Shown here: positions 11,828 through 13,373 of the stretch, in pieces
How the letters are laid out: every line of letters begins with the position of its first letter
How positions within the stretch are numbered: position 1 is the first letter of the stretch
Virus record (IMG/VR): IMGVR_UViG_2531839527_000011
Strand: one strand, 5' to 3'
Source: a virus
Lineage: Duplodnaviria > Heunggongvirae > Uroviricota > Caudoviricetes
Length of the DNA: 19,093 nt
Position numbers and translations under genes: made by a program
The notes under the pieces: generated by a model
Told to the model about the DNA's origin: nothing
The model's database searches: none
The model's input: only the letters and a program-made list of their open reading frames with translations

Positions 11828-12276
11828 TGCAAAAATTTCCTGTAAAAAATAATTACATACTTAAGATACTACAAAGAATAATGCGTACGCAAAATTTTTT
11901 GTTGAGTAGAATATGTTCGCGGGGTATTTTTCGTTAAGATATAATTACCATGGTAACTTTTGCGTTGGTAATGCATTATGTGGTGGAGAAAAAGAGAGAG
12001 TCTTATCTTTAAATTATCGCCAGCCTATATGACTATATGAGTAGTATTTAGATGGGAAATTGTTGAGTTATTGAAAGGAACCATAACCTTTATGTAAAAT
12101 TACTGCGGGTGCTTGAGGTTATCTGTCTCAGGCATGCCACCAAAAGGCAGATAGAGAAAAGCCCCAGTTAACGTTACGCGTCCTGCAAGACGTTTAACAT
12201 TAATCTGAGGCTCAATCTATGAACGGCAAATCTAGGTTAGCCTCTTACGTGCCGAAAGGCAAGGAGAAGCAGGCTA

Positions 12277-12431
12277 TGAAGCAGCAAAAGGCGATGTTAA
12301 TCGCCCTGATCGTCATCTGTTTAACCGTCATAGTGACGGCACTGGTAACGAGGAAAGACCTCTGCGAGGTACGAATCCGAACCGGCCAGACGGAGGTCGC
12401 TGTCTTCACAGCTTACGAACCTGAGGAGTAA
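12277..12431 (+). CDS. hok: Hok/Gef-family type I toxin (51 aa), HokD/RelF-like
   Basis: MKQQKAMLIALIVICLTVIVTALVTRKDLCEVRIRTGQTEVAVFTAYEPEE. TM segment followed by TRK.LCE.R.R.G..EVA.F.AYE, as in Hok. AAGGAG RBS 9 nt upstream. Confidence 0.85.
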
Positions 12432-12498
12432 GAGACCAGGCGAGGGAGAAATCCCTCGCCACCTCTGATGTGTCAGGCATCCTCAACGCACCCGCACT

Positions 12499-12520
12499 TA
12501 ACCCGCTTCGGCGGGTTTTT
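12499..12520 (+). terminator. Rho-independent terminator-like hairpin downstream of hok
   Basis: CCCGC-TTCG-GCGGG stem-loop (UUCG tetraloop) followed by TTTTT. Confidence 0.5.
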
Positions 12521-12646
12521 CGTCGCATAATGAGGTTGTAATTTTAGCTACCATTAGACTATCCTAAGGATCTCAAACAGATCTATTTTGCATCAAATTT
12601 GGTGCATGGCTTTGCCAATAATCGGAAAACAAAAGGACTCATTAGT

Positions 12647-12826
12647 ATGAGCTGCCCACTCAAAAAACACACGCGGTTGAGTATTCCGCCTCGCGATAAA
12701 AGCGTTGTGGCAGTCCCTCGCCCAGCGATTGATGAAAACTGCGCACATCGTGAACAAGTGAAAAATGCTTTTGATTTCGGTTTTTCTCGTTATGAGAAAG
12801 CCATGGAAGAACTTTCAAAAGTGTAA
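12647..12826 (+). CDS. Small protein upstream of the Doc-like toxin; putative antitoxin (59 aa)
   Basis: Internal ATG at 12647 with AAGGA-like RBS. Ends 18 nt before the Doc-like gene. Assignment rests on position only. Confidence 0.4.
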   Translation: MSCPLKKHTRLSIPPRDKSVVAVPRPAIDENCAHREQVKNAFDFGFSRYEKAMEELSKV

Positions 12827-12844
12827 TGATGGGTATTGTGCTCT

Positions 12845-13330
12845 ATGGCTGAGATTGTTGAAGGAGTGCATTACCTTACGGTTGATGATCTTGTTGAAAT
12901 CAATCGTTCCCTAATTGAATTACAGACGCCAGATGAGCCCGTTGGTGTTCTGAGTCCAGATAACTTAAGTTCTTCTCAGGCCCGTCCCAGCATGGTTCGA
13001 TGGTATGAACAGACTAATGACATGTTTGTACTGGCATCGGTATTGATTGAAAGTCTGATTCAGAATCATCCGTTTGCTAATGCGAACAAACGAACAGCTA
13101 TGATGGCTGGTTACGTCTTCTTGTTGTTGAATGGCTATGAGTTAACAGCACCAGGCGATGAAATCGTGGAAATGGCAGAGGGACTGGCCTGCAAAACCTA
13201 TACTCGAGAAGATCTCGAGAACTGGTTGTGTTATTGGTCTCGCGCGTATGACAGCCGGGAATTATGTAAAACAGGCGCAACTATTGTTTTGTATGAAACT
13301 ATCAAGCTTAAAATAGAACAGCAAAACTAA
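12845..13330 (+). CDS. Doc/Fic-family toxin (death-on-curing-like), 161 aa
   Basis: Motif HPFANANKRTAMMAGYVFLLLNG fits the Doc-type Fic motif (P1 Doc: HIFNDANKRTALNSALLFLRRNG). Preceded by a small ORF. Start could instead be the TTG at 12836. Confidence 0.75.
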   Translation: MAEIVEGVHYLTVDDLVEINRSLIELQTPDEPVGVLSPDNLSSSQARPSMVRWYEQTNDMFVLASVLIESLIQNHPFANANKRTAMMAGYVFLLLNGYELTAPGDEIVEMAEGLACKTYTREDLENWLCYWSRAYDSRELCKTGATIVLYETIKLKIEQQN

Positions 13331-13344
13331 AGGTGCTTCCAATG

Positions 13345-13373
13345 AAAACCCGCTTCGGCGGGTTTTGTTTTTT
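13345..13373 (+). terminator. Rho-independent terminator downstream of the Doc-like gene
   Basis: AAAA-CCCGC-TTCG-GCGGG-TTTTGTTTTTT; same stem and loop as the hairpin at 12499-12520. Confidence 0.6.

Follow-up and report, generated by a model that had tools for sequence, protein, structure and literature searches.

Probable side-by-side toxin-antitoxin modules in a lambdoid prophage: a hokD-type locus and an ORF59-Doc moron at its terminator

The DNA analyzed here, IMG/VR virus record IMGVR_UViG_2531839527_000011 (Caudoviricetes), is a stretch of 19,093 nucleotides, referred to below as the window, and corresponds to a lambdoid prophage of the Escherichia coli type. It carries a toxin gene of the Hok family followed by one of the Doc family. 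We consider it probable that these belong to two independent toxin-antitoxin (TA) modules lying side by side. The first is an intact type I locus of the hokD type (hok/mok/sok), spanning positions 12071-12524. The second is a moron at the hok terminator that comprises doc and a small upstream gene, ORF59. An earlier note on this DNA had described the region as a single stacked toxin cassette bracketed by shared terminator hairpins. The features are listed in Table 1.

The two toxin genes are found apart as well as together. Many E. coli genomes, though fewer than 2644 of the 5426 complete ones, carry hok and no Doc, and all 32 viral loci in which Doc is 67-79% identical to that of the window contain the ORF59-Doc pair and no hok. 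The hok-less pair is also present in Salmonella-type and Pseudomonas phages, at other genome positions, and the cassette is variously located in the nin region, among tail genes, among baseplate genes or at the att end. Judged by this distribution, hok and ORF59-Doc are two independent toxin modules and therefore not one stacked cassette.

The Doc protein of the window matched TIGR01550 with 128.5 bits (cutoff 38.65), PF02661 with 46.6 bits (6.5e-12; cutoff 24) and phrog_577 (1.8e-51). Matches in the PDB were to E. faecalis Doc (9vzc, 4.7e-13) and P1 Doc (3k33, 5.6e-5). The sequence HPFANANKR, which the earlier note had called a variant motif, occupies residues 75-83 (nucleotides 13067-13093) and does not vary among 35 homologues from many Enterobacterales. 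It conforms to the Doc consensus published as HXFX(D/N)(A/G)NKR (PMC13034048) and is therefore the canonical motif. The window Doc retains the lysine of the motif, owing to which Doc acts as a kinase and not as an AMP-transferase; the role of this lysine has been described for K73 (PMC7180214).

The earlier note had paired the Doc-family toxin with the small open reading frame (ORF) upstream as its putative antitoxin, and the genomic linkage of the two is strict. ORF59 lies directly 5' of doc in all 80 viral loci, with gaps of 11-24 nucleotides. The pair recurs, at 53-57% identity and with a gap of 3 nucleotides, next to the integrase of the Pseudomonas phages Sirocco and LPPA56, and is found also in two distant metagenomic relatives (L211 and L215). 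The arrangement is thus that of a generic type II TA operon, with a small upstream partner and a pair conserved across contexts. ORF59 is always intact at about 59 codons, and its differences fall mostly at third codon positions (412 versus 192 and 114), a pattern which indicates a real gene under purifying selection. The family is small, with 36 representatives among 1.84 billion proteins, and is annotated only as hypothetical (also by NCBI) or as phrog_2208. ORF59 had no match among Pfam, NCBIfam, PADLOC or PDB profiles. Two further proteins show weak similarity to ORF59 (P0163 and P0167, E above 1e-5); no Doc follows either of them, and both were regarded as unreliable. In the unannotated record of Salmonella phage SW-37 (L008, CP051275.1, 2500-3260) the ORF59 and doc homologues are frameshifted, either as pseudogenes or through sequencing errors, and the identical terminator hairpin still follows doc. 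A search of GenBank phages for near-identical cassette DNA returned no match, the relatives being found at the protein level, and no study of the ORF59-Doc pair came up in the literature, which was searched by topic and by protein accession.

The AlphaFold2 (AF2) model of ORF59, with a predicted local distance difference test (pLDDT) score of 80.5, has residues 1-34 unstructured and a single helix at residues 35-58, which is the best-conserved part of the protein. Profile searches, hhalign and AF2 were all negative for an N-terminal Phd/YefM DNA-binding fold (PF02604), and a regular-expression search for the (S/T)xxxE(G/N) motif of class I Fic antitoxins (VbhA-like) was negative as well. In Phd and EFPhd it is the C-terminal segment that binds Doc (PMC13034048), with an architecture like that predicted for ORF59. 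Moreover, the work of Ernits et al. (2023, PMC10440598) provides a precedent: the Phd-C element by itself neutralizes the Doc that is cognate to it, and there are antitoxins of a single domain. By its helix architecture and the Phd-C precedent, ORF59 is most likely a stand-alone antitoxin consisting of a neutralizing helix without a DNA-binding domain. Its function might instead be that of a small regulator, of a phage-sensing adaptor, or of a protein that chaperones or activates Doc, with Doc controlled in some other way or non-toxic at native levels. The lack of homology to any antitoxin family and of the VbhA-like motif would agree with such a role, as would an invariant IPPRDKS motif near the N terminus that a simple helix-only neutralizer does not account for. 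However, the small gene comes first, the gaps are very short or near zero and the linkage is strict across phages of Enterobacterales and Pseudomonas, which together are the signature of a type II TA system. In addition, conservation peaks in the C-terminal helix, matching the way in which Phd and EFPhd bind Doc. We therefore regard a function of ORF59 other than that of an antitoxin as unlikely.

That the ORF59-Doc unit has been inserted at the hok terminator is indicated by closely related loci that lack it. A prophage of E. coli ATCC 43896 is 99.6% identical to window positions 1-12519 and lacks the cassette. Its alignment breaks at the end of the first hairpin and restarts at 13347, with one hairpin common to both parts. 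Locus L002 likewise has a single hairpin at the hok terminator, which combines the left flank of copy 1 with the right flank of copy 2. An empty site was constructed in silico by joining 12350-12519 to 13367-13536; its best E. coli matches were contiguous over 340 of 340 nucleotides with 99.4% identity. At least 80% of this empty site was covered in 2644 of the 5426 complete E. coli genomes; since inserts of up to ~670 bp are joined, this number is an upper bound for sites that are truly empty. The full hok-Doc arrangement was present in 33 complete E. coli genomes. In the empty-site genomes the genes for orf90 and the DUF968 protein stand directly 3' of the hok terminator. The single hairpin at the empty sites shows that 12520-13366 is a cassette inserted at that terminator, and the duplicated hairpin of the window is the scar of the primary insertion. 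The GC content of the cassette is 0.43, compared with 0.52 for the hok locus and 0.54 for the downstream genes. The unit thus has its own terminator and an atypical GC content, and is present in one and absent from another of two near-identical prophages, as expected of a moron. Morons were reportedly described by Juhala and co-workers in 2000 as accessory cassettes with their own promoter and terminator, located between conserved genes of lambdoid phages of the HK97/HK022 type.

Across the sampled loci, the place behind the hok terminator is taken by at least eight different sequences, among them rem (as in K-12), Doc with a rem-like gene, and an unrelated 130-residue ORF. The last of these, at 1987-2592 of L003 (NZ_CM136151.1), encodes a hypothetical protein with no Pfam match. 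It is bracketed by the identical hairpin, and its left joint cuts the stem of the hok terminator, between ACCCGCTTCGGCG and TTTTTT. In L045 (4320-4507) the genes for isrK and the C4 antisense RNA (Rfam) replace orf90 and DUF968 after the Doc cassette.

The recent history of the cassette can be read from the sequences on either side of it. All 847 bp are 100% identical in six loci (L001, L012, L014, L016, L017 and L020) in which hok differs by 3.7% from that of the window and the right arms differ by 4-22% among themselves. Mapping of mismatches showed the window itself to be a mosaic, which is like ATCC 43896 up to 12308, like L001 from 12391 through the cassette, again like ATCC 43896 at 13367-13846, and like L001 beyond. 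This places the crossovers in hok, at 12309-12390, and in the interval 13347-13458. Because they fall in conserved flanks, present-day transfer of the cassette occurs by ordinary homologous exchange and not via the hairpins. The hairpin-bounded unit, which the earlier note had proposed to look for elsewhere as a mobile cassette, is found unchanged in loci with other flanks, and ORF59-Doc is found in hok-less phages.

The hairpins themselves, which the earlier note had correctly recognized at the ends of both units, share an exact 20-nucleotide direct repeat (AACCCGCTTCGGCGGGTTTT) at 12500-12519 and 13347-13366, with a spacing of 847 nucleotides. A match of the 19-nucleotide hairpin core (12501-12519 and 13348-13366) did not arise in any of 200 dinucleotide-preserving shuffles. 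More than 120 unrelated viral contigs contain the 20-mer, however; of 122 occurrences sampled, 89 stand behind neither hok nor doc, and their flanks are unrelated. The hairpin is, to judge from these occurrences, a generic phage terminator, so that the identity of the two copies is weak evidence on its own and the empty site is the real evidence. Modular acquisition, which the hairpins had suggested to the author of the earlier note, therefore holds for the Doc unit on other grounds. Site-specific recombination at the hairpins was considered and rejected, as the 20-mer is generic, another cassette has its left joint within the stem, and the crossovers that built the window lie elsewhere. An identical hairpin is found 3' of doc in about 20 of the 32 hok-less cassettes, in which the coding DNA is only ~70% identical and the intergenic DNA is unalignable. 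It is thus either the conserved terminator of the cassette itself or has been captured repeatedly. Among the viral contigs with the 20-mer (L091-L210), many from unrelated metagenomic phages have a TTATTGCC(C/T)GGAG...ATG motif recurring behind the hairpin, which looks like a conserved intergenic unit of another phage group, composed of a terminator and a ribosome-binding site.

Alternatively, the Doc unit could be ancestral at this position, the hairpins being two copies of a common, near-optimal terminator and the empty sites being deletions between the repeats. The frequency of the 20-mer in unrelated contigs and its presence after doc in hok-less cassettes would be compatible with this history, and direct repeats of 20 bp are well suited to precise deletion. 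Nevertheless, the empty sites are widespread and diverse, and the slot holds several unrelated inserts. The foreign GC content of the cassette and its 100% identity across diverged flanks furthermore indicate recent horizontal spread. We consider this alternative improbable.

A single integrated two-toxin unit, acquired and working together, can be given very little credence: in its favor, hok and Doc are adjacent in most of the nearest viral loci and in 33 complete E. coli genomes, and even L027 and L041 retain a hok 3' remnant ahead of the cassette, but hok with an empty site is far commoner (at most 2644 genomes versus 33 with Doc), 32 of 32 cassettes at 67-79% Doc identity are found without hok in other genome regions, and a strong terminator and a change in GC content separate hok from ORF59-Doc.

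The hok locus of the window is complete. The Hok-family assignment made in the earlier note was confirmed by profile search (Table 1), and RefSeq relatives of the gene carry the annotation hokD. The gene upstream encodes a DUF6731 protein on the opposite strand, so that relBE is indeed absent from this position; the order in K-12 Qin is relB-relE-hokD-rem-ydfU. The in-frame extension from 12219, which had been suggested to be a mok-like leader, has a geometry identical to that of the annotated mokC/hokC of K-12, and its ATG is kept in 58 of 59 related loci. The candidate promoter ends 7 nucleotides 5' of the leader start defined by Rfam (12107). Homology to most other hok loci begins at 12090, and the mosaic joint with those loci (12089/12090) falls between the -35 and -10 elements, so that the -35 element (TTGAAA) stems from lineage-specific sequence. 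The -10 element reads TAAAAT here and TAGAAT in most relatives. K-12 hokD aligns to the window only at 12262-12520, showing that the K-12 copy is the truncated one and the window copy complete.

The hok leader matched the Rfam model RF01794 at 12107-12281 with 108.7 bits (gathering score 59). This model is named sok and is built on the strand of the hok leader. In the minimum free energy fold of the transcript the 5' segment GGGUGCUUGAGG (tac, 12107-12118) pairs with the 3' segment CCUCAACGCACCC (fbi, 12481-12493) just before the terminator, with a fold energy of -168.7 kcal/mol (z = -6.7). No covariation of tac with fbi was measurable in the 59 related loci, in which both elements are invariant or nearly so. 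The annotation of K-12 sokC projects by alignment onto complement(12151-12227) and overlaps the first 9 nucleotides of mok. The corresponding RNA would fold into a single-stranded 5' tail of 14 nucleotides and a hairpin of -29 kcal/mol followed by a U-run (z = -5.45). A putative Sok promoter on the minus strand (TTGCCT-17-TAACCT) has its -35 at 12262-12257 and its -10 at 12239-12234; the latter reads TAATCT in 9 of 59 relatives. A Sok-like RNA, which the earlier note had expected but not seen, thus has a candidate position. Of the two elements it had proposed to look for in the hok 5' region, the fold-back was found, and for the Sok promoter there is a weak candidate. A homologous system, hokW-sokW of the lambdoid Stx prophage Sp5, has been validated experimentally (PMC8621323), and enrichment of hok in prophages has been reported (bioRxiv 10.1101/2025.08.07.668861).

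Table 1. Coordinates of the two modules, their control elements and the genes to their right
Feature	Position	Strand	Evidence
Candidate sigma-70 promoter of hok mRNA, TTGAAA-18-TAAAAT	12071..12100	+	promoter scan, 10/12 matches
Full-length hok mRNA (predicted, 417 nucleotides): tac, Sok-target/mok leader, mok/hok, fbi, terminator	12107..12524	+	
Candidate Sok antisense RNA with promoter-like element	12151..12262	-	RNA ~12227 down to 12151/12157
mok-like ORF, 70 residues; 19-codon (57-nucleotide) in-frame N-terminal extension of hok	12219..12431	+	
hok, HokD-type toxin, 51 residues	12276..12431	+	PF01848 E=3e-23, 81.6 bits (cutoff 22); phrog_251 7.7e-33
Hairpin copy 1: hok terminator, left edge of insertion	12500..12519	+	
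ORF59-Doc cassette (moron), 847 bp, including own terminator copy	12520..13366	+	
Cassette leader: weak promoter-like TTGTAA-18-TATCCT, 8/12 (12536-12565), and imperfect palindrome	12536..12606	+	sequence reading, variant comparison
ORF59, 59 residues, putative minimal antitoxin, phrog_2208 (function unassigned)	12647..12826	+	directly upstream of doc
doc, Doc-family toxin, 161 residues	12845..13330	+	TIGR01550, PF02661, phrog_577
Hairpin copy 2 with T-run: cassette terminator, right edge of insertion	13345..13373	+	terminator scan, 9 pairs
Right-hand neighbors: 90-residue phrog_1212 ORF (orf90), then DUF968 protein; RusA and Q after	13446..14769	+	conserved

The upstream regions of the cassette differ between contexts, as judged by comparison of variants. 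At 12589-12606, 41 nucleotides upstream of ORF59, lies an 18-nucleotide imperfect palindrome, TGCATCAAATTTGGTGCA, and L027 and L041 have a partly homologous one in the corresponding position.

Several observations weigh against two intact and separately acquired modules. For the hok locus, only 3 of 6 bases of the putative Sok -10 fit, which is below promoter-scan calling; as this element is weak and uncalled by the scan, we infer a Sok RNA at this locus rather than count it as found. For the insertion, a deletion between the 20-bp repeats could equally give the empty site in any single lineage, and the hairpin, being a generic terminator, says little about the route of the primary insertion. 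The cassette has no consensus promoter, nothing in it scoring above the scan threshold, and the palindrome TGCATCAAATTTGGTGCA lacks an obvious binder, ORF59 having no predicted DNA-binding fold. ORF59 has no significant similarity to Phd: hhalign against P1 Phd gave a probability of 0.4%, and a flush C-terminal alignment of the two had 4 identities in 23 positions (P = 0.07 versus shuffles). The F-x3-F...EL resemblance of its C terminus to Phd residues 51-73 was accordingly set aside as a lead only. Finally, the AF2 model of Doc was poor (pLDDT 51, from a shallow alignment of 35 close homologues), so that the Fic fold is assigned from sequence profile matches only.

For the two independent modules favored here, the following mode of action is proposed by analogy. 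A stable hok mRNA would be held closed by pairing of its 5' and 3' ends (tac with fbi) and processed slowly, with Hok translation coupled to the in-frame mok leader. A short, unstable Sok antisense RNA across the mok start would block translation of mok and hence of hok. If transcription stopped, Sok would decay first and Hok would then kill the cell through membrane damage. Doc, by homology, would phosphorylate Thr382 of EF-Tu and so arrest translation. The C-terminal amphipathic helix of ORF59 may bind Doc as the C-terminal helix of Phd does, and ORF59 is presumably labile. The proximity of the two toxins would reflect a recombination hot spot behind the hok terminator and no functional coupling, with homologous exchange in its flanks carrying the cassette from one prophage with hok to another. 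Both modules could serve in stabilizing the prophage, in aborting infection by other phages, or in both.

The two modules lie between the replication genes and Q, in a region which, judged by the genes on its two sides, is accessory and nin-like. The upstream part of the window encodes a LexA/CI-like repressor, a YdaT-like protein (7179-7604) and a DUF977 protein. The region 3' of doc encodes DUF968, RusA, the antiterminator Q, a Ser/Thr kinase, a PP2C phosphatase and a DNA methylase. The DicF antisense small RNA is encoded on the minus strand at 4529-4580, with a full-length match to its Rfam model (66.9 bits). Within 9876-11827, a two-gene module of low GC content (0.36) lies on the minus strand, one gene encoding the 304-residue DUF6731 protein (10913-11827) and the other a 159-residue protein (10418-10897) with a weak PADLOC match to RexB (E = 0.0015). 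The two could be an exclusion pair resembling RexAB. The module lies just downstream of an extra antiterminator gene of the Q family on the plus strand (9876-10412, PF06530), and 19 complete E. coli genomes carry the whole segment 9400-12100 with 100% identity. The genes for the Ser/Thr protein kinase (PF00069) and the PP2C phosphatase (PF13672) form a pair at 15897-17476, directly 3' of Q. The prophage thus holds several candidate toxin or exclusion modules, namely the kinase/phosphatase pair, hok, Doc, the DUF6731 module and the YdaT-like protein.

The Hok/Sok and Doc families were already known, and RefSeq annotates both toxins in identical loci; current understanding of either is not overturned. 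What is added is a previously unannotated partner family, a Doc subfamily with a single-helix partner unlike Phd, and a definition, to the base pair, of the slot that morons occupy after the hok terminator in lambdoid prophages, for which at least eight alternative occupants are documented. The cassette has been caught in transit between near-identical prophages by exchange in flanking homology. A functional hypothesis is thereby provided for phrog_2208, which would be a compact example of antitoxins consisting of the neutralizing element only, and a partner of Doc other than Phd. In addition, a complete hokD-type locus with leader, mok and putative Sok is present in natural prophages, the K-12 reference copy being a truncated remnant. 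More speculatively, and in our view doubtfully, ORF59 may found an unrecognized family of helix-only antitoxins for a distinct Doc subfamily of 160 residues. The moron would then be a module for abortive infection or superinfection exclusion, traveling in temperate phages of Enterobacterales and Pseudomonas and landing preferentially behind terminator hairpins that act as recombination joints. Should this be so, the ORF59-Doc module would be triggered when an incoming phage stops host transcription or degrades ORF59.

Among known systems, the type I locus resembles hok/sok of plasmid R1, hokC-mokC-sokC of K-12 and hokW-sokW in its 51-residue Hok/Gef toxin and its predicted tac/fbi pairing. With K-12 mokC it further shares the 19-codon in-frame extension and a candidate antisense RNA across the mok start, and with hokW the location in a lambdoid prophage. 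It differs from K-12 hokD, which is truncated, has relBE upstream and lacks the leader, in being complete, and from known hok loci in that its -35 element lies in lineage-specific sequence.

The cassette resembles morons of the HK97/HK022 type in its presence or absence in near-identical prophages, its own terminator, its deviating GC content and its nin-like location. Unlike those morons, it has only a candidate promoter, and its insertion exactly duplicates the terminator of the neighboring gene.

The similarity to the Phd-Doc systems of P1 (PDB 3K33, 3DD7) and E. faecalis (PDB 9VZC) lies in the Doc-type Fic protein with the HXFX(D/N)(A/G)NKR motif including its lysine, in the small upstream partner gene and in carriage by a phage. 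However, the window locus is a moron of a chromosomal prophage and not the addiction locus of a plasmid prophage, and the Doc subfamily to which its toxin belongs exceeds P1 Doc by ~35 residues, with a conserved WLxxWxRxYDSRxLC segment at the C terminus. The partner, too, is unrelated in sequence to Phd/YefM and has a single predicted C-terminal helix. In this respect ORF59 may be likened to the Phd-C element of PanA antitoxins, where a short helical element is enough against the cognate Doc and the DNA-binding domain is dispensable. It differs from that element, to which homology is undetectable, in being a free-standing protein of 59 residues with no Panacea domain.

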